Assembly: GCA_017410455.1 (NCBI GenBank)
Contig: JAFQQT010000027.1
Span: 15,028 to 79,027, forward strand
Direction of reading: 5' to 3'
DNA: 64,000 nucleotides
Source of the DNA: Clostridia bacterium
GTDB lineage: Bacteria; Bacillota; Clostridia; Christensenellales; Aristaeellaceae
A program made the translations under genes and the position numbers. Below the pieces are notes generated by a model. The model did no database searches. It was not told the DNA's origin and saw only the letters and a list, made by a program, of their open reading frames with translations. Each line of letters begins with the position of its first letter. Position 1 is the stretch's first letter. Positions 7,153 through 61,693 of the stretch are shown one piece after another.

Positions 7153-9150
7153 ATGCCCAGACGCGACTGGGGCGAAACGCTGGAAACCAAGATCGCCATG
7201 CTGCCCGAATCCCCCGGCTGCTATCTGATGAAGGACGCCGGGGGCACGATCATCTACGTCGGCAAGGCGGTGAATCTCAAGAACCGTGTCCGCAGCTATT
7301 TCCGCGACGCCGACCACACCCCGAAGGTCGCCGCGATGGTCGAAAACATCGCCGACTTCGACGTCCTGCTGTGCGACAGCAACCTGGAGGCCCTGTGCCT
7401 GGAATGCAACCTGATCAAGCGCCACCGCCCTCACTACAACATCCTCCTCAAGGACGACAAGCATTACCCCTACATCTGCGTCAACCTGCGCGAACCTTTC
7501 CCCCGGCTGGAGCTGGCGCGGCGCATGCCTGAAGGCGGCAAGAAGGACGGCATGAAGTACTTCGGCCCTTACATCGGCGCCACCGCCGTCCGCCAGGTGA
7601 TCGAGGCCGTGCGCGGCGTATTCCCCCTGCGCACCTGCCGCAAGGACCTGCCGCTGAAGAACCCCTGCCGCCCCTGCGTCAACTACGAGATCGGCAAATG
7701 CATGGCCCCCTGCGCCGGCAAGTGCACCGAGGAAGCCTACTGGGACATGATGGACGGCGTGCTGGCCTTCCTGGGCGGCGACTACGACCAGGTGCTGAAG
7801 GTGCTGCACAGGGAGATGATGGACTGTGCCGCGCAGATGAAATACGAGCGCGCCGCCGCCGTCCGCGACAAGATCCGCGACATCGAGGGCCTGATGGAGC
7901 GGCAGATCGCCATCCGCACCGAGCGGAGCGAACAGGACGTCATCGCCCTGGCCCAGGACGGGCTGGACGCGATGGTGCACATCTTCTACGTCCGCGGCGG
8001 CCGCATGATCGGCGGCGATCACTTCGCCCTGCCCCGCGAGGGCAGCGAGGCCCCCGGCGAGGTGCTGGCGGGCTTCCTCACCCAGTATTATGAGGATGGC
8101 AACCTCATCCCGCGAAATGTGCTGGTGCAGACCCTGACCGAGGGCGGACGCGAGCAGATGGAGCAATGGCTGCGCCAGCAGAAGGGCGCGGCGGTGACGC
8201 TGCTGACCCCCCAGCGTGGCGAGAAGCACGACCTGATCCTCCTGGCGGCCAAGAACGCCGCCGATGCGCTGGAGAAGCGCAACGCAAAGGCCTCCGTCCG
8301 CCAGGAGCGCACCACCGGCGCCTGCGCTGCCCTGGCCAGGGCTCTGGGCCTGGAAAAGCCGCCCCGGCGCATCGAGGGCTACGACATCTCCAACACCCAG
8401 GGCGTGCTGAGCGTGGCCAGCATGGTCGTTTTCATCGACGGCGTGGCGGCAAAGAAGGAGTACCGGCACTTCCGCATCAAGACGGTGGAGGGCGCAAATG
8501 ACTTCGCGTCCCTCAACGAGGTGCTGGGCCGCCGCTTTGCCCGGGGTCTGCAGGAGAAGGCCGAGCGCGAGGCAGCCGGCCTGCCCGCCATCGGCGGCAA
8601 GTTCAGCGACCTGCCCGACCTGGTGCTCATCGACGGCGGCCCCCAGCAGCTGCGCTTTGCAAGGCAGGCGCTGCTGGATATGGGGGTTCGTGTGAAGGTC
8701 GGGCTTCAGCCCGACGAGCATGTCGATTGCTCGCAATCGACGTGCGAAGCCTGCGACGCGCCGGAAGGCGTGGCGCAGGCCGAAGTAGCCATGTTCGGCC
8801 TGGCGAAGAAGCAGGAGGAGATCTTCCTGCCCGACCGGGAGGAGCCGATCCTGCTGGATCACCACACGCCGGAACTGCATCTGATCCAGCGCGTGCGCGA
8901 CGAGGCCCACCGCTTCTGCATCACTCACCACCGCGGTCTGCGCGGCAAGGCCAGCATCCACAGCCAGCTGGAGGACATCCCCGGCATCGGCCCCAAGCGC
9001 CGCAAGGCCCTGCTGACGAAGCTGGGTTCCATGAAGGCCATCTGCGAGGCCACAGAAGAGCAGCTCCTCGCCGTCCCCGGTATGACGAAGGCGGCTGCGG
9101 AGGCCGTCATGAAGTGGGCAGAGGCCACGGCGAAGAATCATTCCCAATAA
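7153..9150 (+). CDS. uvrC: excinuclease ABC subunit C
   Basis: Track ORF trimmed to MPRRDWG at 7153. GIY-YIG block PGCYLMKDAGGTIIYVGKAVNLKNRVRSYF and C-terminal HhH IPGIGPKRRKALL. Confidence 0.95.
   Translation: MPRRDWGETLETKIAMLPESPGCYLMKDAGGTIIYVGKAVNLKNRVRSYFRDADHTPKVAAMVENIADFDVLLCDSNLEALCLECNLIKRHRPHYNILLKDDKHYPYICVNLREPFPRLELARRMPEGGKKDGMKYFGPYIGATAVRQVIEAVRGVFPLRTCRKDLPLKNPCRPCVNYEIGKCMAPCAGKCTEEAYWDMMDGVLAFLGGDYDQVLKVLHREMMDCAAQMKYERAAAVRDKIRDIEGLMERQIAIRTERSEQDVIALAQDGLDAMVHIFYVRGGRMIGGDHFALPREGSEAPGEVLAGFLTQYYEDGNLIPRNVLVQTLTEGGREQMEQWLRQQKGAAVTLLTPQRGEKHDLILLAAKNAADALEKRNAKASVRQERTTGACAALARALGLEKPPRRIEGYDISNTQGVLSVASMVVFIDGVAAKKEYRHFRIKTVEGANDFASLNEVLGRRFARGLQEKAEREAAGLPAIGGKFSDLPDLVLIDGGPQQLRFARQALLDMGVRVKVGLQPDEHVDCSQSTCEACDAPEGVAQAEVAMFGLAKKQEEIFLPDREEPILLDHHTPELHLIQRVRDEAHRFCITHHRGLRGKASIHSQLEDIPGIGPKRRKALLTKLGSMKAICEATEEQLLAVPGMTKAAAEAVMKWAEATAKNHSQ
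8689..8784 (+). repeat. in-frame three-hairpin intragenic element, copy 1 (inside uvrC, sense)
   Basis: H1 GTCGGGC-TTCA-GCCCGAC at 8698-8715. H2 TCGATTGC-TC-GCAATCGA at 8723-8740. H3 interrupted 13-bp stem at 8749-8780. Encodes RVKVGLQPDEHVDCSQSTCEACDAPEGVAQAE between conserved UvrC blocks. Confidence 0.8.
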
Positions 9151-13534: not shown

Positions 13535-13555
13535 AGAACACGAAAATCGCATCCA

Positions 13556-13639
13556 CCGCTGGGGGTGCGGCACGGGAAACCGCCGCCGCTGAGATACACC
13601 CTTGGAACCTGTGTAGGTCATCCTACCGTAGGGAAGCGG
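13556..13639 (+). promoter_or_regulatory. TPP (THI-box) riboswitch
   Basis: CTGGGGGTGC...CTGAGATACACCC..GGAACCTG...GGTCATCCTACCGTAGGGAAGCGG matches the THI element. A GGCA-ATTCG-TGCC hairpin followed by GTTTT lies just downstream. Confidence 0.85.
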
Positions 13640-13792
13640 GGCAATTCGTGCCGTTTTCGTGTAGATCCGGACTACAGGAAAACCCCGAATGGCCATCCTG
13701 CTTTCCCGCGTACACACGCGGGTTTTTCATTTGCGTAAGAGTCGGGGAAACTCCGGCTTGACAGGATGCGTCGCAAAGGAGGATTTTCACCC

Positions 13793-16231: not shown

Positions 16232-16700
16232 CGAATACCAGCGCATCCGCAGGGGCGACTATCAGCCACCCGCATGCCGCATCACCCGATTGTCGCTAAG
16301 GGGCGCACAACGCCAGGCTGCTGCGCATCAGCGCTGCCCTCTGACGACCCACATCGCCGCAGGACACCTCATCACCGCCTGCGGGCGGAGTTTCCCCTCA
16401 AGGGGAAGCCGGGGAAGAATCCGTGCTGGGCAGCTGAAGGCTCTCCCTCAGGGAGAGCTGTCCCGAAGGCACCGAGAGGGGGCTCCCGGCAACGCGCAAC
16501 CATGCCACAGTCCCACGCGGGCGCAAGCATGACCGAAGGCACTCTACTCAATCGCGAGCCGGGTCCAGCGTCACGCTGGTGTCATTTCAGACGCGAAAAT
16601 GTATCTTTGGAGCAAAGCCTATGGCCAAACCCTGTGGCCTGTGCTATACTGCAAGCGTGGTAAGAACCCGGGAAACCCCCGGTAACCCTTGAAGGAAGGA
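16232..16700 (+). repeat. composite GC-rich intergenic repeat (contains the C module and the CTATCAG hairpin)
   Basis: GGCGACTATCAGCCACC hairpin near 16253. CACCTCATCACCGCCTGCGGGCGGAGTTTCCCCTCAAGGGGAAGCCGGGG at 16365-16414. Confidence 0.75.
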
Positions 16701-25042: not shown

Positions 25043-25918
25043 ATGGGTGCATGGAGCGTTTCCATTACCGGCAATGACACAGCGCGTGACCTGCTCACCG
25101 AGTATTCCGCCGCCTTCAGCCGCTACGCCCCCGCAGAGGCCGTCGCCCTGCTGGACGCTTATGTCCGCCGGGATTTCCGCGCCGGCCCCGGCGACGAGGA
25201 CTGGGTGGACTACCGCTACTCGCTGGCGCAGTTCATGTGGAAGAAGGGCGTGCTGACCGATGCAGTCCGGGACGAGGTCATCGCCATGATCGACCGGGGC
25301 GAATGCCTCGACCTCTACGAGGACGCCGCCACCCTGCGCAAGCGGCAGAAGGTGCTGGCGGAGTTCCGGGCGCAGCTGCTCTCCCCGCAGCCGCCGCGCA
25401 AGCCCATCCGCGTCAGCCGCGCGCAGATGACCCTGCCCTACGAAGTGGGCGACGTGATCGCCATGCGCCTGCACACGGCCGCATGCCGCACCGAGTACCA
25501 CCGCCCCCGCCTGTCCGCAGAGGCCTTCCGCCAGCTGGACGGCCAGTGGTTCGTCTGGCAAATGGTGAAGGCGCATGTGTCCTGGCGTTCCGCCGTTGTG
25601 CCGGAAGTGTTCGACGTGTGGCCGTATTACCGGATGTACGCCGCCGTCTTCCCGGAGGTCCCCACCCTGGCGCAGCTGGCGGACGTGCCCTTCGTGCGCT
25701 ACAGCGACGTATGGCACCCCACCGTCCGCACGGCGCTGATCACCGGCAACAACACCCACACGGGCTACCGCAGGCGCGAGGCGCAGCTGATCGGGCGCGT
25801 CGATGTGACGCTGCCCCGGGGCGAGGCATACAACGAAACGATGATCCTCCCCGCCTGCCTGCCCCCGACCTTCGAGACCGACGCGGAGATCGCCTGCCTG
25901 CTCTACGGGCGGCAGTGA
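25043..25918 (+). CDS. hypothetical protein, DUF4259-like N-terminus
   Basis: MGAWSVSITGNDTARDLL resembles the MGAWG..FDND.A.D start of DUF4259 as I remember it. Confidence 0.45.
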   Translation: MGAWSVSITGNDTARDLLTEYSAAFSRYAPAEAVALLDAYVRRDFRAGPGDEDWVDYRYSLAQFMWKKGVLTDAVRDEVIAMIDRGECLDLYEDAATLRKRQKVLAEFRAQLLSPQPPRKPIRVSRAQMTLPYEVGDVIAMRLHTAACRTEYHRPRLSAEAFRQLDGQWFVWQMVKAHVSWRSAVVPEVFDVWPYYRMYAAVFPEVPTLAQLADVPFVRYSDVWHPTVRTALITGNNTHTGYRRREAQLIGRVDVTLPRGEAYNETMILPACLPPTFETDAEIACLLYGRQ

Positions 25919-25929
25919 ACGGCGGACAG

Positions 25930-26562
25930 GCCCGGAACGGTTGCAGGGGCGGATATCAGCCGCCCGCATCACCGCTGTTCCGGATGGCCGCAAAGGCTCG
26001 CGCCACATCGCACAATCCCTTCCCGCCACGCCCACCTCATCACCGCCTGCGGGCGGAGCTTCCCCTCAAGGGGAAGCCGGGGATGCCCGGGCGGGCGCGT
26101 TCCTTTGCGGGTTGCGCGTTGGTGCGGCATGCGGGAGAGGCAAACCCTCCCCTACGGCATGGGGGAGCGAAACAGAACGGAGCGTCCGTAGGGACGGCTA
26201 TCAGCCGCCCGCCTCGCGCCTGCCCCGGATTGCCGCAAGGGCGCATACCGCCTCACACCCCATGCGCCCGCTTGCCGCTGTTCCGGATGGCCGCAAAGAT
26301 ACGCACCGCCTCACGCACCGTCAGACCGCTGCAGCGCCCCGCCGCCGCATGACACCTCATCACCGCCTGCGGGCGGAGCTTCCCCTCAAGGGGAAGCCGG
26401 GGATGCTCGGGCGGGCGCGTTCCTTTGCGGGTTGCGCGTTGGTGCGGCATGCGGGAGAGGCAAGCCCCTCCCCTACGGCACAGGGGGACGGATCAAGCCG
26501 GACGCCCGCGCTCCCCATCAGCCCCCGCCATCCAAATTCATAATTCCTAATTCATAATTCCC
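25930..26562 (-). repeat. composite intergenic repeat, two tandem ~300-320 bp units ending in the AT-rich module
   Basis: C/D module at 26033-26140 and 26353-26460. CTGTTCCGGATGGCCGCAAAG appears twice. CTATCAG hairpins. AT module at 26532-26562. Confidence 0.85.
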
Positions 26563-26575
26563 GCTTCCTCCCACG

Positions 26576-26606
26576 CAAAAGGGCCTCTCCACCTTCGGAG
26601 AGACCC
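26576..26606 (-). terminator. rho-independent terminator of the 26612 gene
   Basis: Minus-sense GGGTCTCTCC-GAAGGT-GGAGAGGCCC followed by TTTT. Confidence 0.65.
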
Positions 26607-27829: not shown

Positions 27830-28407
27830 ATGTTGTCGTGCCCGCAGGCGGGAGCCTTTGGCATGTGGTGCCGGGGATTTCTCCGGAAATCCGGTTCAGT
27901 CCGGAGGGCGAAAAGCCGCCCTCTCCGGGGGAGGTTCGTTCCTTTGCGAGGTGTGCGTTGGTGCGGCATGGGGCGGAGCGAACCGGAACGGAGCGTCCGC
28001 AGGGGCGGCTATCAGCCGCCCGACACGCGTCTACCCCGGATTGCTGCAAAGGCGTACACCGCCTCACACCCCACGCGCCCGCTTGCCGGCTGTTCCGGAT
28101 GGGCACAGAGGCATGCACAGCCTCACACATTTCTCTTCCCCCGCAAGACACCTCATCACCGCCTGCGGGCGGAGCTTCCCCTCAAGGGGAAGCCGGGGGA
28201 GATGCCGGGGCGGGGGCGTTCCTTTGCAGGTTGTGCGTTGGTGCGGCATGGGGGCGGAGCGAACCGGAACGGAGCATCCGCAGGGGCAGCTATCAGCCGC
28301 CCGCCTCGCTGCTGCCCCGGATTGCTGCAAAGGCTTGCGCAGCGGGCTGCCCACCCCCGTCCCCACCAGCTAAATTCCGAATTCATAATTCATAATTCAT
28401 AATTCCC
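27830..28407 (-). repeat. composite intergenic repeat, two tandem ~282 bp units ending in the AT-rich module
   Basis: D module at 27937-27974 and C/D module at 28149-28254. GGCGGCTATCAGCCGCC hairpins near 28003 and 28285. AT module at 28371-28407 abuts the NYN gene stop. Confidence 0.85.
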
Positions 28408-37895: not shown

Positions 37896-38355
37896 CCTGA
37901 CAGGCCGATCCCTCCGGGGGTGATACCTGATCAGCCCCGATCGTGGGGGGTAAGGGGGGCAGGACAGAGCGCAGCGATGGCCTGACCGATCCCACCGGAG
38001 GTGATAAGGCACAGGCCGAGCGCAGCGACAGCCTGATCAGGCCTCCCCCATCAAAGGGGAAAGGGCACAGGCTGAGCGCAGCGATGGCCTGATCAGGCCT
38101 CCCCAATCAAAGGGGAACAGGCGCAGGCCAAGCGCAGCGATGGCCTGATCAGGTCTCCCCAATCAAAGGGGGAAAGGGCACAGGCCGAGCGCAGCGATGG
38201 CCCGATCAGGCCTCCCCAATCAAAGGGGAAAGGGCGCAGGCCAAGCGCAGCGATGGCCCACCCCCACCAACGGTGGCAAGGCAAGCCCATCGCAGCGCCC
38301 CCATCCCATCCCCACCCGATCGGTGGAAAGGGGTACCAGCCGAGCTCCGCAATGG
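37896..38355. repeat. tandem array of about 9 units of ~56 bp
   Basis: Units start at 37896, 37926, 37981, 38032, 38088, 38143, 38201, 38257 and ~38300. Core unit: CCTGATCAGGCCTCCCCAATCAAAGGGGAAAGGGCACAGGCCGAGCGCAGCGATGG. Confidence 0.85.
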
Positions 38356-38443: not shown

Positions 38444-39736
38444 TCACTGATTGGGCAGCAGCGTCAGGATCTCTTTAATGGACATGCACAGCTGATCAGC
38501 CTCGCGGCTGCGGCCGTTCTCCAGGATCGACCGGGCCGTGGCCTGCATGGCCGGGAAGGCGCTGCGGATCAGGTGGTTGGCGTGGATGACGACGTTCACC
38601 CCGTGGGCGGCCAGCTCGGCCTCGGTGGCGCCGTTGTAGGTCGTGGGCACGACGATGATGGGCGTCTTCGGGTCCACCCGGCGGAAGGCGTCGCAGAAGG
38701 TGTACACCTCGTCCGGGGTCTTCGACTTGGAGTGGATCATGATGCCGTCGGCCCCGGCCTTCACATAGGCGTGGCAGCGGGTCAGGGCGTCCTCCATCCC
38801 CTGCTCCAGGATCAGGCTCTCGCAGCGGGCGATGATCATGAAGTCGCGGGTCTTCCGGGCGGCCTTGCCGGCGGCGATCTTGTGGCAGAAGTCCTCGATG
38901 CTGTCCTGCACCTGCCCCACGCCCGCGCCAAAGAGGCTGTTCTTTTTCAGGCCCTTCTTGTCCTCGATGATGATGGCGGAGATGCCCATGCGCTCCAGGG
39001 TCTGCACGTTGTATACGAAGTGCTCCACCAGGCCGCCGGTGTCCCCGTCGAGGATAATGGGCTTGGTGGTGACCTCCATGATCTCCTCCAGCGTGCGCAG
39101 GCGGCTGGTCATGTCCACCAGCTCGATGTCAGGCTTGCCCTTGGCGGTGGAGTCGCACAGGCTGCTGACCCACATGGCGTCAAACTGGCGGCGGCCTGCG
39201 GGGGTCTCCACGGCGGTCTTTTCCACGATCAGGCCGGTGATGCCGTTGTGGGCCTCGCACACGCTCAGGCAGGGCTTGCAGCTCAGCAGGCGGCGCAGGC
39301 GGCTCCGGCGGGTCTCCGGCAGGGACAGCAGCGCGTCCAGCGCGGAGAGGGTCTCCTCCGTGGGCGTGTGCGTGTAGGGGAACTCGACGAGCTGTCCGCC
39401 CCACCGGGCCAGCACCTCGATCACCCTCTGGCGGATGTTGGCCTGGTAGCCCACGAGCCAGTCATCCCCGTGGACGACGACGTCCGGCTTCAGCCGGATG
39501 AGGATATCGGTGTAGTCGAGGGTCTCCTGCACCACCACGCGGCTGACGTATTTCAGGCTCTCGAACATCGCCACGCGCTCCTCCAGCGGCAGCAGCGGGT
39601 AATGCTTGTAGCTGGCCACAACCTCGTCCGTCAGGATGCCGACGGTCACTTCGCCCAGCGCCGCGGCCTTCTTGAGGATGGAGAGGTGGCCGTTGTGGAT
39701 GATGTCGGTGGAAAAGCAAATGTAGACCTGCTTCAT
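38444..39736 (-). CDS. aepX: cytidylyltransferase-PEP mutase fusion protein
   Basis: N-terminal HxGH nucleotidyltransferase motif STDIIHNGH. C-terminal PEP mutase motifs ILDGDTGG and IIIEDKKGLKKNS. Confidence 0.85.
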   Translation of the reverse strand: MKQVYICFSTDIIHNGHLSILKKAAALGEVTVGILTDEVVASYKHYPLLPLEERVAMFESLKYVSRVVVQETLDYTDILIRLKPDVVVHGDDWLVGYQANIRQRVIEVLARWGGQLVEFPYTHTPTEETLSALDALLSLPETRRSRLRRLLSCKPCLSVCEAHNGITGLIVEKTAVETPAGRRQFDAMWVSSLCDSTAKGKPDIELVDMTSRLRTLEEIMEVTTKPIILDGDTGGLVEHFVYNVQTLERMGISAIIIEDKKGLKKNSLFGAGVGQVQDSIEDFCHKIAAGKAARKTRDFMIIARCESLILEQGMEDALTRCHAYVKAGADGIMIHSKSKTPDEVYTFCDAFRRVDPKTPIIVVPTTYNGATEAELAAHGVNVVIHANHLIRSAFPAMQATARSILENGRSREADQLCMSIKEILTLLPNQ

Positions 39737-40548
39737 GCCAGTACCTCCTTGGCAAAGCGGCGGCTGACGGCTTCCTTGTCAGCCTGGTTGTCGATCTCGG
39801 CGCAGAGGAGCCCCGCCACATCCAGCGGGCGGATGGGGATCTCCCGCCACGCGGCGTTGAAGGCGTTCTCGGCGTAGACGCGGTCGTTCCCGGCGGATTC
39901 GAAGGCGGCGATCTCCTGCAGCCAGCGGTCCACCTGAGCAGCCCTGAGCAGATAGGCGGGCTGCAATTCGACGCAGTCCGGGCCGAAGACGTTCACGCCC
40001 ACCTCGCAGACGAGGCCATCGGCAATGCGCCCCTTGAAGTCCTTTTCGGGCAGGGGTAGCGTGCTGTCGACGGTCACGGCGGATACGGGGGACGCGGCCA
40101 GGCGGCGCATCACCTCCGGGTGCATCACCAGGTCGCCGTGCAGGCTGATGACATCCTGACCAGCAAGGAGTTCGCGCGCCAGGTGAACGGAGTGGATGTA
40201 ATTGGTCTCCCAGAAGCGCGGATTGTGCACGAAGCGGAAGCGGATGGGCGTGTCCAGCGAGCGGAGGTAGCCTTCCAGCATGTCGCTCAGGTGCCCGGTG
40301 GTGACCACGGCCTCGGTGACGCCGACGGCTTCCAGGCACTTCAGCTGCCAGGAGATGATGGTCTCCGGGAGTGGCCCAAGGTCGGACGCATGTCCGACTG
40401 GCGACAGCGATTCCTTGGAATCGCCGAGCGTAGCCAGCGGCGGAGCTTGCCTCCGGTGATGGCCGAGTACCGTCATGCATTTGGGGTGTTCGCGGGTCTC
40501 GTCCCCCATGCGGGAGCCGAGGCCGGAATTGAGAAGCAGTGCGATCAT
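39733..40548 (-). CDS. LicC-like nucleotidyl(cytidylyl)transferase
   Basis: Start chosen at MIALLLNSGLGSRMG (GGAGAA RBS). The stop overlaps the pepM-fusion start (ATGA). Confidence 0.7.
   Translation of the reverse strand: MIALLLNSGLGSRMGDETREHPKCMTVLGHHRRQAPPLATLGDSKESLSPVGHASDLGPLPETIISWQLKCLEAVGVTEAVVTTGHLSDMLEGYLRSLDTPIRFRFVHNPRFWETNYIHSVHLARELLAGQDVISLHGDLVMHPEVMRRLAASPVSAVTVDSTLPLPEKDFKGRIADGLVCEVGVNVFGPDCVELQPAYLLRAAQVDRWLQEIAAFESAGNDRVYAENAFNAAWREIPIRPLDVAGLLCAEIDNQADKEAVSRRFAKEVLA
40381..40455 (+). repeat. three-hairpin intragenic element, copy 4 (inside the LicC-like gene, antisense to it)
   Basis: H1 GTCGGAC-GCAT-GTCCGAC at 40381-40398. H2 GCGATTCC-TT-GGAATCGC at 40407-40424. H3 CGGAG-CTTGC-CTCCG at 40441-40455. 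Confidence 0.75.
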
Positions 40549-40599
40549 AGCGTTCTCCATCAGGGTATATATTGGGATTAAGGTATATTTCAGGATCGT

Positions 40600-40881
40600 C
40601 TCCAGTGCTGCCGCAGGGGCGGGTGTCAGCCCCCTTCGCCGCTGGTTCACGCCGCCGCAGGACACCTCATCACCGCCTGCGGGCGGAGCTTCCCCTCAAG
40701 GGGAAGCCGGGGAGGCGCCGGGCAGGGCGTTCCATTGCGGGTTTGCGTTGGTGCGGCATGCGGGAGGACTGCAGCATAGCAGACCAGCCCAAGCCTCCCT
40801 CCCCGAGGGAGGTAGATTCCTTCGCGGCTTGAAAAGCCGGGTAGGAAGACGGAAGGGGGCCTCCTGCAGGCCTCGCCGGGC
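40600..40881 (+). repeat. composite GC-rich intergenic repeat inside the phosphonate operon
   Basis: C/D module at 40663-40767, then the CCTCCCTCCCCGAGGGAGG hairpin and others. Confidence 0.75.
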
Positions 40882-42099
40882 TCACTGCTGCAGGAAGGCC
40901 ATCAGCGCGTCGCGGTTCTGCTGCGGGGTGGTGGTGGGGCGGCCGAGGTCAGCCCGCGCACCCACGGCGCACATCACCTCGATGAAGGCCAGCTCCCCGG
41001 CGGACAGGGCCGCATCGATGGCATTGAGCAGGGTTTCGGGGCTGTTCGCGCGGCAGACGCTGCGGTAGCCCGCGGCCATGGCCAGGGCGCACAGGTCGAG
41101 GCCGCCCTCGCACACGGGCATGCCGCCGACGGTCTCATGGGCGCCATTGTTGATCACGACATGCACAAGGTTGCGGGGCTGCCGCTGGCCGATGACCGCC
41201 ATCGCGCCCAGGTGCATCAGGGCTGCGCCGTCGCCATCCAGGCACCAGATGCGGCGCTCGGGCTGCTCCATGGCAATGCCCAGGGCGATCATGGAGGCGT
41301 GGCCCATGCTGCCCACGGTGAGGAAGTCGCGCTCGTGGCCCTGATGTGCCGCCTCCCGCAGCTCGAACAGCTCGCGGCTGAGCTTGCCTGTGGTAGACAC
41401 GAAGGCGTCGCGGCTCCCCGCCAGCCGGGCGATGATCCCCACGGCCTCCTCGCGGGTCATGGCGTGGGCGTTGCCGTAGACGGGCTTGGCGGAGCAGGTG
41501 AGCGCGCCCTTCTTCACCACGATGGCCGCGGTGCGGTTGGCAGCCAGGTGGGCGCGGATGCCCGCGAAGGCCGCGTCGAAGTCGGCCTCGGTCATGGCCT
41601 TGTCCAGCACCATGTACGGCACATCCAGCAGCTCCAGCTGGCTGAGGGTCACCTGCCCCTGCTTGACATGCTGCGGCTCGTCATCAGTCGCCCTCGTCAC
41701 GCTTTGCGCGCCGGGGGTACAGGCCATCAAATCCGAGGATTTGACAGCCTTAGTCAGCGGTGAACCGCTGACCTCCGTCACGGGTTCGCCGCGCCAGCCG
41801 ACGACCAGCAGGCAGGGCATGGCGTAGACCTGAGCATCCATCAGCGAGGCCAGGGGGTTGACGGCGTTGCCCAGGCCGGAATTCTGCATGTAGCACAGCG
41901 CGGGCCGCCCGGTGGCCAGGAAATGCCCGGCGCACAGGCCGATGGCGTTGCCCTCGTTGGCGGCGACGATGTGCTTCTCCTTCACGCCCAGGGTGGCATA
42001 GAGCGTATCGCACAGCCCCTTGAGCTGCGAGTCCGGCACGCCGGTGAAGAAGTCGATGCCCGCATCACGGCAGGCGGCAAGCAGGTGCTGTGCGTCCAT
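40882..42099 (-). CDS. aepY: phosphonopyruvate decarboxylase (ThDP enzyme)
   Basis: ThDP motif GDGAALMHLGAMA..NNGAHETVGG. VVGWRGEP...DDEPQHVKQG block. Confidence 0.85.
   Translation of the reverse strand: MDAQHLLAACRDAGIDFFTGVPDSQLKGLCDTLYATLGVKEKHIVAANEGNAIGLCAGHFLATGRPALCYMQNSGLGNAVNPLASLMDAQVYAMPCLLVVGWRGEPVTEVSGSPLTKAVKSSDLMACTPGAQSVTRATDDEPQHVKQGQVTLSQLELLDVPYMVLDKAMTEADFDAAFAGIRAHLAANRTAAIVVKKGALTCSAKPVYGNAHAMTREEAVGIIARLAGSRDAFVSTTGKLSRELFELREAAHQGHERDFLTVGSMGHASMIALGIAMEQPERRIWCLDGDGAALMHLGAMAVIGQRQPRNLVHVVINNGAHETVGGMPVCEGGLDLCALAMAAGYRSVCRANSPETLLNAIDAALSAGELAFIEVMCAVGARADLGRPTTTPQQNRDALMAFLQQ
41689..41784 (-). repeat. in-frame three-hairpin intragenic element, copy 3 (inside aepY, sense)
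   Basis: Sense H1 GTCAGCGG-TTCA-CCGCTGAC (41772-41753). Sense H2 TCAAATCC-TC-GGATTTGA (41744-41727). Encodes VTEVSGSPLTKAVKSSDLMACTPGAQSVTRAT. Confidence 0.75.
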
Positions 42100-42261
42100 G
42101 TGTCATCACTCCATTGGTTGGTATTCATATCATTATAGCATATCCGGCAGGGTTTGGCTACAGGAGATTTCAGCAGGCAGCAAAAAAGGCCGCCGCACCG
42201 AAGCGCAGCGACCAAACCAGGGTACATTCCAGGACTCCCGAAAACCACCCCAGTCCACAAA

Positions 42262-42294
42262 CCCAATTCATAATTCCTGATTCCTAATTCCTGC
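42262..42294 (-). repeat. AT-rich module copy abutting the capA stop
   Basis: Minus-sense GCAGGAATTAGGAATCAGGAATTATGAATTGGG, starting 1 nt after the TGA. Confidence 0.8.
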
Positions 42295-42295
42295 T

Positions 42296-43471
42296 TCACT
42301 TCTCCTCTCCCCATTCCAGCGGATACTCCGCCACCGCATAGGTCAGGTTCTTGCCGTTCCTGAGGAGGGTGTTGACGACGGCCTCCTTGGAAGAGGCGCT
42401 GTCGTAGGGCGTGGGGGTGAAGTCGTTGCGGTTGGTGCGGGAGGAGATGCGGATGGGGATGATGCGGAAGCCCTCGTTGGCGATGACCTGGCCCTCCTCG
42501 CCCTCGGTGATGCGGAAGCGGGTCTGGAAGAGGAAGGACGTCATGTCATCGGGGTTGTTGTGGCCAGCGAAACAGAAGTTGCCCAGGCTGTAGCAGATGT
42601 ACACGCCCTTGTACTGCTCGATGGGCTGGATGCGGTGGCTGTGGTGGCCGATGACCAGATCCGCGCCGGAATCCACGGCCAGGCGGCCCATCTTGACCTG
42701 ATTGTTCGTGGGGACGTACTCCTTCTCGTTCCCCCAGTGGAAGCTGACGATCACGATGGGGTACTGCGCCTTGGCGGCGGCGATGTCTGCAGGCACCACG
42801 TCCCAGAGCTTCGAATAGCGGTCGATGCACAGGTAGGAGAGCATGGCGATCTTGACGCCCTTGACCTCGTAGACGCCCAGTTCGCCATCGCCGGACCAGA
42901 CCACGCCCGCATCCGTCAGGTGCTGCTTGGTTTCGTCCCACACGGCCTGGCCGTGATCGAGCACGTGGTTGTTCTCCAGCGACACGGCCTCGATGGAGTT
43001 GTCCGTCAGCATCCTGGTGTAGGAGGGCGGCGCGCTGAAGAGGAACTGGTTCTCCCGCTTCTCCGGGGGTACATAGGTGCTCTCGGTCAGCGTGCCCTCG
43101 AAGTTCACGATGGTCAGGTCGTCCTTTTCGAGGATGGACCTGATGTTGCGCAGAGCAAAGTTGGGGTCGCCGCCCTGGCGCTCCAGCTCATCCTCCCAGA
43201 TACTGCCCCGGTCGCGGCTGTCCCCGCCGACGGTGAAATCGCCCGTGGCGGTGATGGTGATGAGGATGGAGCCGTCCTCCTCGTAGAAGCTGGTGAGGGT
43301 CGCTTCCACCTCGATGGCCTGATCCTCCACTTCCTCAGGGATGACGATAAAGGTGTCGAACACCACGTCCGGGTCGGCGTTTTCCATCAGGTCCGCCATG
43401 GACAGCTCCTCCTCCGCAAGGGCCGCGGGGATGAGCAGCAGGCACAGCAGCAGCACGATCAGTTTGCGCAT
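42296..43471 (-). CDS. CapA-family (poly-gamma-glutamate/metallophosphatase-like) secreted protein
   Basis: Signal peptide. GHHSHRIQPIE and YSLGNFCF motifs. Confidence 0.8.
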   Translation of the reverse strand: MRKLIVLLLCLLLIPAALAEEELSMADLMENADPDVVFDTFIVIPEEVEDQAIEVEATLTSFYEEDGSILITITATGDFTVGGDSRDRGSIWEDELERQGGDPNFALRNIRSILEKDDLTIVNFEGTLTESTYVPPEKRENQFLFSAPPSYTRMLTDNSIEAVSLENNHVLDHGQAVWDETKQHLTDAGVVWSGDGELGVYEVKGVKIAMLSYLCIDRYSKLWDVVPADIAAAKAQYPIVIVSFHWGNEKEYVPTNNQVKMGRLAVDSGADLVIGHHSHRIQPIEQYKGVYICYSLGNFCFAGHNNPDDMTSFLFQTRFRITEGEEGQVIANEGFRIIPIRISSRTNRNDFTPTPYDSASSKEAVVNTLLRNGKNLTYAVAEYPLEWGEEK

Positions 43472-43493
43472 GGGTACCTCCAGTATGTTCGTA

Positions 43494-44678
43494 TTAGCCG
43501 CGCACCTGGCGGACGAAAGCCTCCATGCGCTCCAGGGCGATGTTCAGCTTGTCGATGCCCGTGGCGTAGGAGCAGCGGATGTGGCCCTCGCCGCAGGCGC
43601 CGAAGGCCGTGCCGGGCACGCAGGCCACCTTGTGCTCCAGCAGCAGGCGGTTGCAGAAGTCCTCGCTGGTCAGGCCCGTGGGCTGGATGCCGGGGAAGAC
43701 GTAGAACGCGCCCCTGGGCTCAAAGCACTCCAGGCCCATGGCCCGGAAGCCCTCCACCATCAGGCGGCGGCGGCGGTCGTAGCTCTCGCGCATCTTCCGC
43801 ACGTCCTCATAATCGGTCAGGCGGCCGCTGCGCAGGGCCTCCAGCGCGGCCACCTGGCCCATGCGCGGAGCACACATGATGCCGTACTGGTGGATCTTGA
43901 GCATCACAGAGATGATCTCCCGCGGGCCGCAGGCATAGCCCACGCGCCAGCCGGTCATGGCAAAGGCCTTCGAGAAGCCGTTCAGGGTAATGGTGCGCTG
44001 CCACATGCCGGGCAGCGCCGCGAAGGACACATGCTGATGGTCGCCGTAGGACAGCTCGGCGTAGATCTCGTCGGAGATGACCAGCAGGTCATGCTTCTCC
44101 ACCACTGCGGCGATCTTCAGCAGATCCTCCCGGCCCATCACGCCGCCGGTGGGGTTGTTGGGATACGGCAGGATCAGGAACTTCGTCCGGGGGGTGATGG
44201 CCGCTTCGATGGCCTCGGGGGTGAGGCGGAACTCAGTCTCCGCCGTGGTCACCACGCCCACGGGGGTGCCAGTGGCGAAGATGACGCTGGGGCTGTAGCT
44301 GACGTAGCTGGGTTCGGGCACCAGCACCTCGTCGCCGGGGGAAACCAGGGCGCGCAGGGCCACGTCGATGGCCTCCGAGGCGCCCACGGTCACCATGATC
44401 TCCGTGGCCGGGTCGTACTTCGTCTGGTAGCGGTGCTCCAGATACCAGCTGATCTCCTCCAGGAGCTCAGGCATGCCACGGTTGCCGGTGTACTGCGTTT
44501 CGCCGTCCAGCAGGCTGTTGATGGCGGCGTTGCGGATGTGATAGGGGGTCACGAAATCCGGCTCGCCCACGCCCAGGGAAATGGCGTCCTTCATCGTGGC
44601 GGCAATGTCAAAGAAACGGCGGATGCCGCTGGGGGGCACGGCCGCGATGGCGGGGTTGATAAACTTCTCGTACGTCAC
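43494..44678 (-). CDS. class I/II PLP-dependent aminotransferase
   Basis: GVGEPDF and the PLP-lysine motif GFSKAFAMTGWRVGY. Confidence 0.85.
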   Translation of the reverse strand: MTYEKFINPAIAAVPPSGIRRFFDIAATMKDAISLGVGEPDFVTPYHIRNAAINSLLDGETQYTGNRGMPELLEEISWYLEHRYQTKYDPATEIMVTVGASEAIDVALRALVSPGDEVLVPEPSYVSYSPSVIFATGTPVGVVTTAETEFRLTPEAIEAAITPRTKFLILPYPNNPTGGVMGREDLLKIAAVVEKHDLLVISDEIYAELSYGDHQHVSFAALPGMWQRTITLNGFSKAFAMTGWRVGYACGPREIISVMLKIHQYGIMCAPRMGQVAALEALRSGRLTDYEDVRKMRESYDRRRRLMVEGFRAMGLECFEPRGAFYVFPGIQPTGLTSEDFCNRLLLEHKVACVPGTAFGACGEGHIRCSYATGIDKLNIALERMEAFVRQVRG

Positions 44679-45270: not shown

Positions 45271-46401
45271 TCACTCGATGAACATGGCGTCGCCGAAGGA
45301 GAAGAAGCGGTAGCGCTCCTCCACCGCCTCGCGGTAGACGTCCAGGGCCGTTTCCCGGCCCATGAAGGCGCTCACCAGCATCAGGAGCGTGCTCTGCGGC
45401 AGGTGGAAGTTGGTAATCAGCGCATCCACGGCCTTGATCTTCTTGCCGGGGTAGATGAAGATGGCCGTGTCCCCCGCGCCGGGGTGGATGACGCCGTCCT
45501 CGGTGGCGACGGTCTCCAGCGTCCGCACAGAGGTGGTGCCCACGCAGATGATGCGCCCGCCCGCCGCGCGGATGGCGTTGAGCGTGTCCGCCGCCTCCTG
45601 GCTGACGTGGTAGTACTCCGAGTGCATCACATGGGTGTCCACATCCTCCACGGTGACGGGGCGGAAGGTGCCCAGCCCCACATGCAGGGTCACGGGCACG
45701 ATGGTCACGCCCTTCTGCTTCACCTTCTCCAGCAGCTCCGGGGTGAAGTGCAGACCGGCGGTGGGCGCAGCGGCAGAGCCCTCGTTCTTCGCATAGACGG
45801 TCTGGTAGCGGCTGCGGTCCTCCAGCTTCTCGTGGATGTAGGGCGGCAGGGGCATCTCGCCCAGCCTGTCCAGGATCTCCTCGAAAACGCATCCGGCCAT
45901 CCCCGGGACAAGCCCGGTGCTGGCTTCACCCGGCGATTGCGAGCAATCGCTCGGGCTCGTCGGGCTTTGCCCGACCTGATCCCACATGAAGCGCACGATG
46001 CGCCCGCCGATCTCCGGCACGGAGGACAGCACCTCGCACCGGAGCAGGCCATCGCCGAAGACGCACACCGCGCCGGGCTTGAGCCTGCGGCCCGGCTTGA
46101 CCAGCGCCTCCCAGTCCGTGGCGTTGATGCGCCTGAGCAGCAGCACCTCCACCGGGACGCTGTGGCCCTGGCTGTCGACGCCCTCCTTCACGCCCAGCAG
46201 ACGCGCCGGGATCACCTTCGTCTCGTTGATGACCAGCGCATCACCGGCGTTCAGGTAGTCGAGGATATCGTGGAAATGGCGATGCTCCCGGCTGCCGTCG
46301 CTCCGGTGGACGACCAGCATGCGGGAGTGGTCACGGGGCTCCACGGGGGTCTGGGCAATCAGCTCCTCGGGGAGGTTGTAGTCAAAATCAGCGGTTCTCA
46401 T
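45271..46401 (-). CDS. queA: S-adenosylmethionine:tRNA ribosyltransferase-isomerase
   Basis: [19 protein letters not shown] and [10 protein letters not shown] motifs. Confidence 0.95.
45900..45981 (-). repeat. in-frame three-hairpin intragenic element, copy 2 (inside queA, sense)
   Basis: Sense H1 GTCGGGC-AAA-GCCCGAC (45975-45959). Sense H2 GCGATTGC-TC-GCAATCGC (45950-45933). Sense H3 CCGGG-CTTGT-CCCGG (45917-45903). Encodes [28 protein letters not shown]. Confidence 0.8.
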
Positions 46402-51524: not shown

Positions 51525-52898
<1,374 letters not shown>

Positions 52899-52943
52899 AA
52901 GTGTTGCCTCCTTAAAATATGTGAGCATTCTTATCCACGATAT

Positions 52944-52972
52944 AGTATAACAGATGCAGGGGCTTTGTTCAA
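52944..52972 (-). promoter_or_regulatory. argH promoter (inside the repeat)
   Basis: Minus-sense TTGAAC, 17-nt spacer, TATACT. Confidence 0.55.
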
Positions 52973-53001
52973 TCTCTCAAAACAATTTGCGCAATAAAAT
53001 A

Positions 53002-53054: not shown

Positions 53055-53756
53055 TTACTGCAACTGCTTGTAGAGTTCTTCAAGTGTCGCAGTCTCTACT
53101 GGGGCGGGCTTGTTCGCTTGTGCTGCACGCTCTCGCTCCAAAACTTTTGCAATATGTCTGAGATGCGCGGCCGCCTCATCATTATCACAGGGGCTCAAAC
53201 GTGTACCAACATATGTCGACTGCCCTACGTATGATCGGCTGAACTCCTCTCGCCTCATACCGAATCGCCCCTTCGTTACCGTGCGTTTCCACAGTACAGT
53301 CAACAAGTATGGCATGATGCACGTCTCATATCTATCATAGTCGTGCATGCTATTTGGAATTGTGAATAGATAGTCCCCTTTCGTCAGTCTGCAGAAATCA
53401 AACTGCTGATGGGTCGCCACATTCTCGATTATCAGCCGTGGAAACCGCCAGCCGTTACTGTTTTTCACTGCTTTGGCCACATCAAGCACTTTACACAAGC
53501 AAGTAATTGGCTCACGGAACATGCCAACGTTGCCGTCCGCATAGTACCCCTTATCCCAGAATACCGCGCGGAATTCACCTATTCCCCATCCGTCACCGGC
53601 TCTATAGGCTTCTGATTCATGCATCACATCATGTTCACCATCAGCACGTAAAACCCAGTATTGGCCCACGCAGAAGCGTTCCAATGTACGGTTAGCCTCC
53701 ACCATCAAATTGTCCAGATCCACATCCCATGTGTTGATTCTTCTTCTCATGCTCAT
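53055..53756 (-). CDS. hypothetical protein (233 aa) on a low-G+C cassette
   Basis: GGGGAGG RBS. Composition is clearly more AT-rich than the flanks. No domain recognised. Confidence 0.6.
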   Translation of the reverse strand: MSMRRRINTWDVDLDNLMVEANRTLERFCVGQYWVLRADGEHDVMHESEAYRAGDGWGIGEFRAVFWDKGYYADGNVGMFREPITCLCKVLDVAKAVKNSNGWRFPRLIIENVATHQQFDFCRLTKGDYLFTIPNSMHDYDRYETCIMPYLLTVLWKRTVTKGRFGMRREEFSRSYVGQSTYVGTRLSPCDNDEAAAHLRHIAKVLERERAAQANKPAPVETATLEELYKQLQ

Positions 53757-53789: not shown

Positions 53790-53921
53790 TCATGACAGAT
53801 CGATTCCCCGAACGACGAACATGTCCTCCTCGGCCATGCGCTGGTCGAAGGAAATGGAAGAATGGAAATCGTCCATCAGGTGATCGGTGGATTTGGCAAA
53901 ACGGCCGCCCCAGAGTTTCAT
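53790..53921 (-). pseudogene. argH 5' remnant (34 argH codons fused to 9 foreign codons)
   Basis: MKLWGGRFAKSTDHLMDDFHSSISFDQRMAEEDMFVVRGIDLS. It carries its own copy of the promoter and RBS. Confidence 0.85.
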
Positions 53922-53997
53922 AAGTGTTGCCTCCTTAAAATATGTGAGCATTCTTATCCATGATATAGTATAACAGATGCAGGGGCTTTGTTCAATC
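53821..53997 (-). repeat. 177-bp direct repeat, distal copy
   Basis: See 52798-52974. Confidence 0.95.
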
Positions 53998-54023
53998 GGG
54001 TGTGCAAAAAAGATGCAGGGCTC

Positions 54024-54052
54024 TTGCGCTTTCCTGCGCGCGGCGATATAAT
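54024..54052 (+). promoter_or_regulatory. candidate promoter of the phd/doc pair
   Basis: TTGCGC, 17-nt spacer, TATAAT. Confidence 0.5.
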
Positions 54053-54072
54053 CAATGCAGGAGGTGATCCCC

Positions 54073-54246
54073 ATGACCCTGGTTGAACGCATTGCCCGGG
54101 AGGTCAGCGCCCTGCCCGCCCCCGCGCAGCAGCAGGTGCTCGATTTCGCGCAGTTGCTCAGGCAGCAGGAGCAGCAGCGTCTGGAGGAGGACATGGAAGC
54201 CATCATCATGGAAAACCTGCCCGCCTGGAAGGAGCTGGCCAAATGA
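54073..54246 (+). CDS. Phd-position antitoxin (DUF2281-like)
   Basis: Trimmed to MTLVERIAREVSALP (AGGAGG RBS). Small and acidic. Overlaps the doc start. Confidence 0.6.
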   Translation: MTLVERIAREVSALPAPAQQQVLDFAQLLRQQEQQRLEEDMEAIIMENLPAWKELAK

Positions 54247-54632
54247 TGTACTGGCTTCCCGATCCGGACACGGTGCTGCGGCTGCACAGCATGATGATCC
54301 TTCATTCCGGCGGATCCGATGGCGCGCGGGACATCGGGCTCGTTCACAGCGCCATCGCCCGGGCCAGCGCCGCCTTCGGGGGCGTGGAAGCCTATCCGGC
54401 TCTGGTCGAAAAGGCAGCCGCCATGGGCTGCGGCCTGGCGCAGAATCACGGCTTCATCGACGGCAACAAGCGCATCGGCATGGCCGTGATGCTGCTGATC
54501 CTGCGGCGCAACAGCGTCGCCCTGCATTACTCGCAGGAGGAGCTGGTTGCCCTGGGCCTCGCCGTCGCCCGCGGAGACGCCGATGTTCAGGACGTACTGA
54601 ACTGGATCAAGTCACATATCGCAACAGAATAA
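54243..54632 (+). CDS. doc: Doc (death-on-curing) Fic-fold toxin
   Basis: HGFIDGNKRIG Fic/Doc motif. Confidence 0.85.
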   Translation: MMYWLPDPDTVLRLHSMMILHSGGSDGARDIGLVHSAIARASAAFGGVEAYPALVEKAAAMGCGLAQNHGFIDGNKRIGMAVMLLILRRNSVALHYSQEELVALGLAVARGDADVQDVLNWIKSHIATE

Positions 54633-56781: not shown

Positions 56782-56877
56782 GTGTGTTGTCCCCTTTCAA
56801 ACGAAAAATGGCCGCCCGTTTTTCAACAGACAGCTCCGGGGAACGACGCAGACACTGATACCCGATGGTACATATCG

Positions 56878-56971
56878 CCTGCTCCGTCCTTTTGCCTGAG
56901 AGATTCCACCGATGCAGCCGCACCGGCTTTGCACCTTCGGCACTCACCTGTGTGAGGTTCTCCGGAGTTCC
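56878..56971 (-). promoter_or_regulatory. glycine riboswitch, single aptamer
   Basis: Minus-sense CCGGAGAACC...GTGCCGAAGGTGCAAAGCC...GAATCTCTCAGGCAAAAGGACGGAG. Confidence 0.8.
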
Positions 56972-57023
56972 CTCCCCCCGCGGGCTGTGTTGGTTCCTGC
57001 GGATATCGTCGGGAATGGTCATT

Positions 57024-60567: not shown

Positions 60568-61046
60568 CCAGGGGCCTCCGGCGGGCAGGGGCGCTGCCCC
60601 TGCACCCTGCGAAGGGACTTCGTCCCTTTCGAAACCCATTCTCGCGATTTTGTTTTGGGTTCTCCTGGAGCTGGACTCGCGTGGGAGTTGGGCGGGGGTG
60701 CGCGTCGCACGTGGCACGGAGGGTGCCACGCGCGGGCACGGCTCGCAGAGGGCGAGCCGCGCTGGTGTTGCGCTTTGCCAAGGCTCCAGGGGCCATTAAC
60801 ATTCCTCGTCGCTTTCGCCTTCGGCGAACTCCCCACTGGGGAGCCGCTCCCGCGGAATGCCCCTTTGACTCCAGCAGGGGGACTTCGTCCCCCTGCACCC
60901 CCTCGCGGCTGCGCCGCGTGCCCACCCGCCCACCCCGGGGGCTATCGCCCCCGACCCCCATGGACGCTGCTCGCTTCGCTGCGCTGCTGCTTTCCCGTGC
61001 CCACACAATCAATTCCGAATTCCGCATTCCGAATTCGTATTCCGGA
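60568..61046. repeat. GC-rich hairpin train plus an AT-rich-like module between ruvC and ruvA
   Basis: Hairpins CAGGGG-CGCT-GCCCCTG, AAGGGAC-TTC-GTCCCTT, GTGGCAC-GGAGG-GTGCCAC, CGGCTCG..CGAGCCG, GGGGGAC-TTC-GTCCCCC and GGGGG-CTATC-GCCCCC. AATTCCGAATTCCGCATTCCGAATTC at 61010-61035. Confidence 0.75.
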
Positions 61047-61662: not shown

Positions 61663-61693
61663 GGGAATTATGAATTAGGAATTATGAATTGGG
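61663..61693 (+). repeat. AT-rich module copy 2 nt after the ruvA stop
   Basis: GGGAATTATGAATTAGGAATTATGAATTGGG. Confidence 0.85.

Follow-up and report, generated by a model that had tools for sequence, protein, structure and literature searches.

Rickettsia palindromic elements (RPE-1 to RPE-8), reportedly described by Ogata et al. in 2000, are short palindromic repeats found between genes and in frame within housekeeping genes, where they are read as extra peptide loops. An element with these properties is described here in a 64,000-nucleotide stretch of a Clostridia bacterium of the Aristaeellaceae (contig JAFQQT010000027.1, hereafter the window). It consists of three consecutive hairpins (H1, H2, H3) inserted in frame in uvrC and recurs in queA, in a gene for a thiamine pyrophosphate (TPP)-dependent decarboxylase and in a LicC-like nucleotidyltransferase gene. 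It is very probably a mobile repeat with tolerated in-frame gene copies. With a probability of roughly two in three, it is more precisely a non-autonomous mobile hairpin element resembling the repetitive extragenic palindromes (REPs), of which the genic copies survive in stop-free frames and in loops. As for the RPEs, survival is limited to stop-free, frame-preserving insertions. RPE hosts, however, are obligate intracellular Alphaproteobacteria as opposed to free-living or gut Bacillota here, and the present element keeps its three hairpins in one order and is strongly biased in position and orientation near ribosome-binding sites; given the different phylum and GC content, homology to RPE families is unlikely. 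The RPE comparison made in the initial annotation thus holds for the in-frame palindromic insert, but the element is closer to REP-type repeats than was assumed.

The BOX elements of Streptococcus pneumoniae are composed of boxA, boxB and boxC modules. Like the present element, they are modular, multi-hairpin intergenic repeats of a Firmicute, co-transcribed with their neighbours and variable in module number, but the GC content of the host differs and there is no evidence of sequence similarity. BOX modules are not known to occur in frame within genes.

In-frame inserts of GTAG/CGTC REPs have been described in Proteobacteria, Opitutus and others, with uvrA, uvrB, uvrC and other repair genes as hosts (Di Nocera et al. 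2013, PMC3733652). In-frame REP or RPE inserts are thereby documented in Proteobacteria, Verrucomicrobia and Rickettsia; REPs have been reported from Proteobacteria, Cyanobacteria, Chloroflexi and the Planctomycetes-Verrucomicrobia-Chlamydiae (PVC) group, and from no Firmicute (PMC3733652). The likeness to GTAG REPs is extensive: an interrupted GC-rich stem has GTAG directly on its 5' side; the 12-13 bp stem of H3 has a G.A mismatch at its fifth position, as in GTAG-24; arm changes are complementary and G.T pairs occur; copies cluster with reiterated flanking DNA and lie between co-directional open reading frames (ORFs); and intragenic copies encode 20-30 residues, most notably in uvrA, uvrB and uvrC (PMC3733652). 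Whereas a REP is a single hairpin of 20-40 nt, the unit here is H1+H2+H3, though H3 alone would fit, and whereas REPs mostly form inverted dimers downstream of genes, the present copies are arranged head-to-tail and lie upstream of start codons.

Two further systems share part of these features. The ends of the IS200/IS605 family, which transposes by single-strand peel-and-paste, and their miniature derivatives (PATEs) (PMC6006769) also have hairpins at both ends, lack terminal inverted repeats (TIRs) and target-site duplications (TSDs), possess a short conserved sequence directly 5' of the left end and display strand asymmetry; the IS200/IS605 hairpin is, however, located some bases inside, whereas H1 is at the very end, the conserved middle hairpin of the element has no counterpart, and no cognate TnpA or TnpB gene is seen here. 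Coxiella burnetii QMITE1/2, according to PMC5896051, are small palindromic repeats that also land in genes and alter proteins, but they bear TIRs and are classed as MITEs (miniature transposable elements with inverted repeats), in contrast to the element here, which has neither TIR nor TSD.

Literature searches returned no mention of the element's sequence, of such repeats in Christensenellales, or of relevant REP-associated tyrosine transposases (RAYTs) in Clostridia. The repeat family is therefore new, as the initial annotation had proposed, but its novelty is lowered by the precedents in other phyla, from which in-frame palindromic inserts as such are already described (PMC3733652). Distinctive for the element are the fixed order of its hairpins, a conserved internal loop, a variable H2, head-to-tail arrays, placement adjacent to ribosome-binding sites and the allelic series in UvrC. 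With it, the range of palindromic “selfish DNA in genes” that is inserted in frame widens from Rickettsia and REP-rich Gram-negatives to abundant uncultured gut Clostridia.

The insertion in uvrC and its history among homologues

The product of the uvrC gene matches the Pfam families GIY-YIG, UVR, UvrC_RNaseH, UvrC_RNaseH_dom and HHH. Its UvrC_RNaseH_dom match covers 195 residues for 158 profile positions, so that about 36 extra residues lie inside the RNase H endonuclease domain. Positions 8662-8811 of the window are translated as QALLDMG-VRVKVGLQPDEHVDCSQSTCEACDAPEGVAQA-EVAMFGLAKK, the segment itself encoding RVKVGLQPDEHVDCSQSTCEACDAPEGVAQAE; a junction peptide expected from the insert-bearing protein is, for example, VGLQPDEHVDCSQSTCEACDAPEGVAQAEVAMFGLAK. 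The segment is predicted to fold as exactly three consecutive hairpins, and both they and the peptide are found where the initial annotation had placed them (Table 1); H2 lengthens to a 12-bp stem (8718-8745). Of the boundaries proposed at the time, 8689-8784, the start has to be moved: the mobile core is 8698-8784, and the 12 nt preceding it are a leader or a remodelled flank. The hairpin stability is never reached by dinucleotide-shuffled controls, with 0 of 200 shuffles equal to the segment folded as RNA (-66.1 kcal/mol, z = -4.95) or as DNA (z = -6.74); the 87-nt core folded alone has a z of -7.6. The combined H1-spacer-H2 pattern has 3 matches in the window against 0.00 expected, and the H1 and H2 strings are also far above chance.

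The history of the insertion was traced in an alignment of 120 UvrC homologues (74-100% identity) from relatives labelled Aristaeellaceae or Clostridia. The majority have no insert and read QALLDMG-A-EVAMFGLAKK, which was taken as the ancestral state. A minority (P0001, P0003-8, P0010-12 and P0017) exhibits the full insert of 29-31 residues, P0002/L045 harbors three tandem in-frame copies with a 93-nt unit, and several others have shortened inserts that DNA comparison identifies as internal deletions of the same element: the uvrC of L043 retains H1 alone, and that of L044 retains H1, half of H2 and part of H3. At the leader position, the empty allele L042 reads GCGGAG, L044 reads GTGAAG and L045 GTGAAAGTGAAG. 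The solved UvrC structures 3c65, 8b0q and 2nrt, which include those of Geobacillus and Thermotoga, have no residues at the insert site; distant orthologues thus lack the peptide, in agreement with the initial annotation. The inserts of UvrC and QueA align to gaps between secondary-structure elements of solved structures. In an AF2 model of UvrC, itself poor (mean pLDDT, the per-residue confidence, of 53), the insert lies between helix 497-509 and strand 544-550 with a pLDDT below 50. The simplest history suggested by these sequences would be a single insertion, in an ancestor that gave rise to a sub-clade, with later duplication or decay in frame. The series of empty, full, partly deleted and triplicated sites shows entry, tolerance and decay in essential proteins.

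The peptide might instead be a protein-level module, such as a Cys-rich loop DCxQSxCExC selected for a function in the host protein. The retention of C..C..C in several UvrC orthologues and the three copies of one UvrC lineage could be taken in this sense. This reading is nevertheless highly improbable: most of the family is intergenic and contains stop codons, genes use both orientations, the Cys codons are imposed by the stem sequence TGC/GCA, most of the insert has been deleted in several lineages, and the rate of change at its first and second codon positions is 2-3 times that in the rest of the gene.

Further copies in the window and in related genomes

Related copies are picked up both by a scan for hairpin pairs and by a gapped pattern. 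A covariance model, R1, was built from 37 copies. Scanning the 64 kb with R1 yielded exactly four copies, every one of them within a gene (Table 1; R1 spans include 5 nt of the 5' leader). The copies that the initial annotation had reported in queA, the decarboxylase gene and the LicC-like gene are thereby recovered: all four fold into three hairpins and none has a stop codon in the frame read. B. subtilis QueA (1YY3) has nothing equivalent to residues 144-171 of this QueA, and the queA copy is orthologous in the window, SIG357 (L010) and RGIG6373 (L038). The LicC-like copy retains GTAG and TGA on its own strand. The decarboxylase copy, located directly after the N-terminal TPP domain and thus between the two TPP domains of the enzyme, differs in its stems (H1 GTCAGCGG/CCGCTGAC, H2 TCAAATCC/GGATTTGA) while keeping the layout. 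From the position of its gene beside a PEP_mutase gene, we infer that the enzyme is a phosphonopyruvate decarboxylase.

Table 1. Position and properties of the four element copies and of their host genes in the window.
Feature	Position	Strand	Properties
uvrC host gene	7153..9150	+	665 aa from Met at 7153; Pfam domains
5' leader or remodelled flank of uvrC copy	8686..8697	+	GTTCGT GTGAAG (GTTCGTGTGAAG); ends in invariant AG
uvrC copy, R1 span	8693-8784	+	79.5 bits
uvrC element core, sense, 87 nt	8698..8784	+	R1 79.5 bits, E = 8e-14
uvrC copy, H1	8698-8715	+	
uvrC copy, H2	8723-8740	+	
uvrC copy, H3	8749-8780	+	
uvrC copy, tail	8781-8784	+	CGAA
LicC-like nucleotidyltransferase host gene	39733..40548	-	271 aa in metagenome gene calls (L001); weak NTP_transf_3 match
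LicC-like copy, R1 span	40376-40467	+	96.5 bits, top window match
LicC-like element copy, 87 nt, antisense to gene	40381..40467	+	read as LGHHRRQAPPLATLGDSKESLSPVGHASD
TPP-dependent decarboxylase host gene	40882..42099	-	405 aa; TPP_enzyme_N residues 3-106, TPP_enzyme_C residues 257-375
TPP decarboxylase copy, R1 span	41687-41777	-	34.8 bits, E = 4e-5, full length
Decarboxylase element copy, divergent, sense	41687..41772	-	three hairpins, z = -6.2
queA host gene	45271..46401	-	376 aa; Pfam Queuosine_synth, E = 9e-138
queA copy, R1 span	45892-45980	-	88.7 bits
queA element copy, 84 nt, sense	45892..45975	-	fold z = -3.9; read as 28 residues

Beyond the window, the pattern GTCGGNC-N3-4-GNCCGAC-N6-9-CGATTNC-NN-GNAATCG gave 36 matches in 35 stretches of a reference-genome collection, all from metagenome-assembled genomes (MAGs) of uncultured Clostridia. 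None of the refuting outcomes listed in the initial annotation (the peptide in distant orthologues, equal hairpins in shuffled DNA, no copies elsewhere) was thus obtained. As with REPs, which occur in many, mainly extragenic copies per genome, 17 exact matches lie on contigs of a single MAG, SIG357 (SVGL01), where R1 detects more; the others are from MAGs bearing the labels Christensenellales, Candidatus Limiplasma and, in one case, Faecousia. The pattern also occurs in viral contigs (3 matches) and in JGI metagenomes (10 stretches). In about 450 kb of fetched DNA from related MAGs, R1 found 75 copies at E < 1e-6 (57-107 bits). The element has colonised a clade of uncultured GC-rich gut Clostridia, represented by Christensenellales- or Aristaeellaceae-like MAGs. 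R1 is usable for masking or tracking it. The family also carries a warning for annotators: 22 public small hypothetical proteins (P0121-P0142, 41-98 aa) are translated intergenic copies, i.e., spurious ORFs, and both 28-31 residue oddities in MAG proteins and hypothetical ORFs of about 40-100 aa can be repeat-derived.

The family unit is 84-99 nt long and comprises H1, H2 and H3 in a fixed order. From the 5' end, the consensus reads nnGAG / GTCGGGC-loop-GCCCGAC / linker TAGCGAGA / H2 GCGATTGC-TT-GCAATCGC / linker CGAGCGTAG, followed by H3 CCAGCGCC-(variable stem-loop)-GGTGATGG, whose long stem is interrupted and variable in its inner part, and the tail CCGAA. In an alignment of the 75 copies, which was fitted to R1 and contains related sequences, 98.3% of the stem pair cells are paired, against 24-39% with slid partners; all 24 modelled stem pairs are kept and 20 of them have changed on both sides. 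RNAalifold, applied independently to a MAFFT alignment, returned the same helices. H2 is extended by two covarying pairs (one of them GC 24, AU 10, GU 3) across a conserved GAGA/CGA internal loop, which could form tandem G.A pairs. With Rfam 15 covariance models, no family was found at 8600-8900 at a permissive threshold, nor any for the element in the window at the gathering threshold.

Replication template switching is able to create and perfect hairpins, and the hairpins could have arisen locally in each gene by such quasi-palindrome formation, which could account for arms remaining complementary after insertion. As an origin of the copies this is refuted, and with it a reading that was scarcely credible overall: unrelated loci share sequence, order, linkers and ends, with 75 copies in the above score range. 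Template switching may still act in stem maintenance.

Placement, reading frame and stems

With genes in the fetched DNA called by a simple heuristic GC3-based caller, about two thirds of the copies are intergenic. The family is thus mainly intergenic, its genic copies being survivors of selection, and the “intragenic family” of the initial annotation has to be abandoned. Among intergenic copies, 24 of 29 (24:5) have the same direction as the downstream gene. At least 14 copies end 13-25 nt upstream of a start codon, with a Shine-Dalgarno sequence immediately after; the downstream genes, recognised by their N-termini, include rpoB, infC, rpmI, phoU and apparently trpS. One copy occupies the rpoB-rpoC gap immediately after the rpoB stop codon, and a stop codon directly precedes some others. 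Two orthologous copies (L049, L010) start about 9 nt after a -10 box. A promoter is found immediately upstream of 4 of 40 copies, as compared to 1.4% of random positions, an enrichment but no rule.

This placement brings forward a different priority of events, in which the primary role of the element is that of a functional RNA module acting in cis (for example, a stabiliser of 5' untranslated regions (UTRs) or intercistronic regions, an RNase-processing site or a protein platform near the ribosome-binding site), its spread and genic copies being secondary. Such a reading is compatible with mobility and puts function first. The co-orientation and the start-codon spacing agree with it, as does the L049/L010 copy, which would form the mRNA 5' end; furthermore, cross-species orthologous copies change loops and keep stems, stem G.T pairs outnumber A.C, and the conserved GAGA/CGA loop amid covarying pairs resembles a recognition motif. 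Conversely, both orientations occur within unrelated genes, copy number differs among close relatives, tandem arrays and the triplication included, neighbouring genes have no common pathway, no Rfam family matches, a direct upstream promoter is limited to the few copies mentioned above, and genic copies have been lost by deletion in several UvrC lineages. On balance a function-first origin is possible but rather unlikely. A more specific version is doubtful: the three-hairpin unit would be a mobile functional RNA domain recognised by a protein or RNase, with the GA-rich loop and with H2 as a variable specificity stem, acting beside the ribosome-binding sites of core operons such as rpoB, infC-rpmI and pst/phoU, and nucleic-acid selection would persist within uvrC and queA. 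If true, uvrC and queA carry regulatory RNA structure within their coding sequence. Start-codon placement together with stem retention constitutes a testable case of a mobile repeat recruited as an mRNA element.

Arrays are seen solely in head-to-tail arrangement: at least six units with a period of 106 in L014 (1-602, minus strand), two units in L053, and the uvrC triplication of L045. Across the units of the L014 array, H1 and H3 do not vary, while H2 has three variants with compensated arms (GCGATTGC, GCCAATGC, GCTCATTGC). In L037 (1580-1730), a direct repeat of about 20 nt, GACATCCGYGATTTGAA, borders one copy at either side; this copy is also found in two IMG/VR contigs (L046, L048), and the region around it may be prophage-borne.

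Filled and empty versions of orthologous sites could be demonstrated at uvrC, queA, the decarboxylase gene, licC and an intergenic position. In L049 (GCA_965339835.1) the uvrC insert is present, while the queA, decarboxylase and licC sites are empty, with orthologues of 347 aa (QueA), 377 aa (decarboxylase) and 241 aa (LicC-like). At the intergenic site, upstream of an asnC-like gene, L049 and L010 have a copy and the window has none. This mixture of filled and empty sites among relatives indicates that insertions took place at different times as the group diversified. The multiple copies and their presence or absence at orthologous sites bear out the mobile, repeated nature that the initial annotation had suggested.

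The consensus has one open sense frame (VGQSPTSESDCLQSPSVASAG.., ..SPTSxSDCxQSP..), the other two meeting TAG or TGA, and two open antisense frames. Every genuine genic sense copy is read in the consensus-open frame, and all genic antisense copies are read as ..LGDxKxSLxLVG... The length is divisible by 3 in 15 of the 16 genic sense copies (84 or 87 nt), a set that includes orthologues and represents about 8 independent loci, as compared to 23 of 53 other copies; the mean number of open sense frames is 2.4 in the former and 1.06 in the others. As read from the sequences, this is the pattern that purifying selection on random insertions would leave. Since genic copies are stop-free and preserve the frame, the segment is probably read through: these copies would be carried through transcription and translation as a loop of 28-31 residues. 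Had the segment been removed before the protein is made or used, in the manner of an intron or an intein, its frame would be irrelevant, and a stop-free sequence divisible by three would be needless. Apart from the strong structure nothing speaks for such a removal; moreover, 87 nt is below the size of known self-splicing RNAs, 29 aa is below that of inteins, and no Rfam family matches. Removal can be considered practically discounted.

After insertion, the stems are maintained. Between queA orthologues, third codon positions have diverged by 0.26-0.33 in the gene around the element and by 0.07-0.11 within it, where the changes are mostly in loops. The inserts of uvrC orthologues, despite their fast change, have 95% of stem cells paired, with compensated arm changes (TCGATTGC/GCAATCGA, GTGATTG/CAATCAC, CCGATTGC/GCAATCGG). 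In the copies upstream of rpoB in four MAGs, the differences in H3 are likewise compensated. The stems are kept either by selection at the nucleic-acid level or by palindrome self-correction via intrastrand templating. Because uvrC copies decay by deletion in several lineages, any selection on the stems is not absolute.

Ends, target and a candidate route of transfer

The element has no TIRs, its ends GAGGTCGG... and ...GGCCGAA sharing TCGG/CCGA only. Nor was a TSD detected: flank repeats have a mean maximum length of 4.9 nt, as compared to 4.6 nt for mismatched controls, and no duplication appears when empty and filled sites are compared (uvrC, queA, decarboxylase, licC, asnC-upstream). A classical MITE, i.e., a deletion derivative of a DDE-type insertion sequence mobilised by cut-and-paste via TIRs of about 15-30 bp with a TSD of fixed length, would be small, multi-copy, non-coding and structured like the present element, and flank repeats of 7-10 nt do exist at a few copies, e.g., GAAAGGAGGT in L041. 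With TIRs, flank repeats and site comparisons as they are, this classical reading is already largely refuted and very improbable.

AG at -2/-1 is invariant in all copies and GAG at -3..-1 is found in about 75%; AG is present in empty sites as well (uvrC GCGGAG/GTT, asnC-upstream GTTTCAG/TAT). GTAG adjoins the 5' side of H3 in 39 of 53 non-genic copies (74%) as compared to 2 of 16 genic sense copies, its final G pairing as the first base of the H3 stem. H1 is at the 5' end of the element and H3 at its 3' end. The lack of TIR and TSD, the AG, the GTAG and a strand asymmetry, seen in an excess of stem G.T pairs and in the 24:5 co-orientation, together fit a single-stranded DNA route of the HUH/Y1 type better than a DDE MITE. 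This route specifically is put forward tentatively, at somewhat below even odds. The similarity between target site and element 3' end was indistinguishable from chance at four sites, and the GC skew across the window, which follows gene strand, was uninformative on replication orientation.

In this scheme, an HUH/Y1-type enzyme that recognises hairpins would move the element in trans, in the form of single-stranded DNA, by analogy with REP/RAYT or IS200/IS605. The element would insert 3' of AG, the target not being duplicated. Gene-breaking insertions would be purged by selection. Surviving genic copies would lose TAG motifs, the GTAG tag included, and then decay by in-frame deletion or grow by tandem duplication, while the stems would be retained via nucleic-acid-level selection (the hairpins acting as RNA in 5' UTRs and intercistronic regions) or palindrome self-correction.

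Several points weigh against a REP-like mobile element transferred in this way. In contrast to single REPs, the unit is a composite of three hairpins in fixed arrangement, and no head-to-head or tail-to-tail dimers (BIME organisation) were seen among the copies. The gene for a RAYT is usually flanked by REPs; IS200 TnpA and E. coli RAYT, used as tblastn queries on 577 kb of DNA flanking the element, revealed no Y1 transposase, a weak negative limited to these queries and this DNA. The junctions of genic copies (queA, decarboxylase, licC) have 3-15 extra or remodelled bases, so that neither the precise ends nor AG as the target rule can be taken as proven. Cross-species orthologous copies with few changes fit a functional RNA equally well or better than selfish DNA, and the orientation bias could stem from RNA-level selection instead of strand-specific insertion. 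The G.T excess (27 vs 10 A.C, p = 0.008) is uncorrected for ancestry and comes with an RNA scoring that slightly favours G.T. Finally, the putative translation of the insert is deduced from sequence.

Other repeats lie in the same stretch of genome. The phosphonate-type cluster at 38444-44678, encoding a PEP mutase fused to a cytidylyltransferase domain, the LicC-like protein, the TPP decarboxylase, a PGA_cap protein and an aminotransferase, houses two of the four copies in the window. Within it, an H1-like string at 39482-39499 was rejected as a copy, being part of the conserved ..LKPDVVV.. cytidylyltransferase motif. The ruvC-ruvA gap contains two pairs of hairpins separated by an 8-nt spacer (60585-60628 and 60710-60759), with the H1-H2 spacing of the element and unrelated stem sequences. 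Intergenic stretches at 25900-26600, 27850-28400, 16240-16415 and 40607-40780 are full of other GC-rich hairpin repeats (D1, D3, D4, D7, D10, D11), for example CCGCCTGCGGGCGG then AGCTTCCCCTCAAGGGGAAGC; as R1 does not detect them, they are separate families of the same genome. A tandem repeat of about five units of 56-57 nt (four overlapping 93-nt copies) with the palindrome GGCCTGATCAGGCC is located at 37997-38258 (D6). AT-rich tracts, (GGAATTA[TG])n / AATTCATAATTC, are found at about nine intergenic places of this 64% GC genome (15558, 26518, 28356, 32482, 38356, 42248, 60994, 61664; D2, D5, I3, I7, I8, I11). Of the two inspected, that at 61664 is 5' of ruvB and that at 42248 is 5' of the decarboxylase gene; the tracts may be associated with promoters or leaders. 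A 177-nt duplicate, 99% identical (52798-52974 and 53821-53997), overlaps or adjoins two neighbouring minus-strand genes without Pfam match (53055-53756, 53790-54527); the lower-GC stretch (57-59%) at about 50-56 kb that contains it may be a recently acquired or duplicated segment. The Rfam matches of the window, both above gathering scores, are a TPP riboswitch at 13551-13651 (plus strand, 63 bits) and a glycine riboswitch at 56874-56975 (minus strand, 52 bits).

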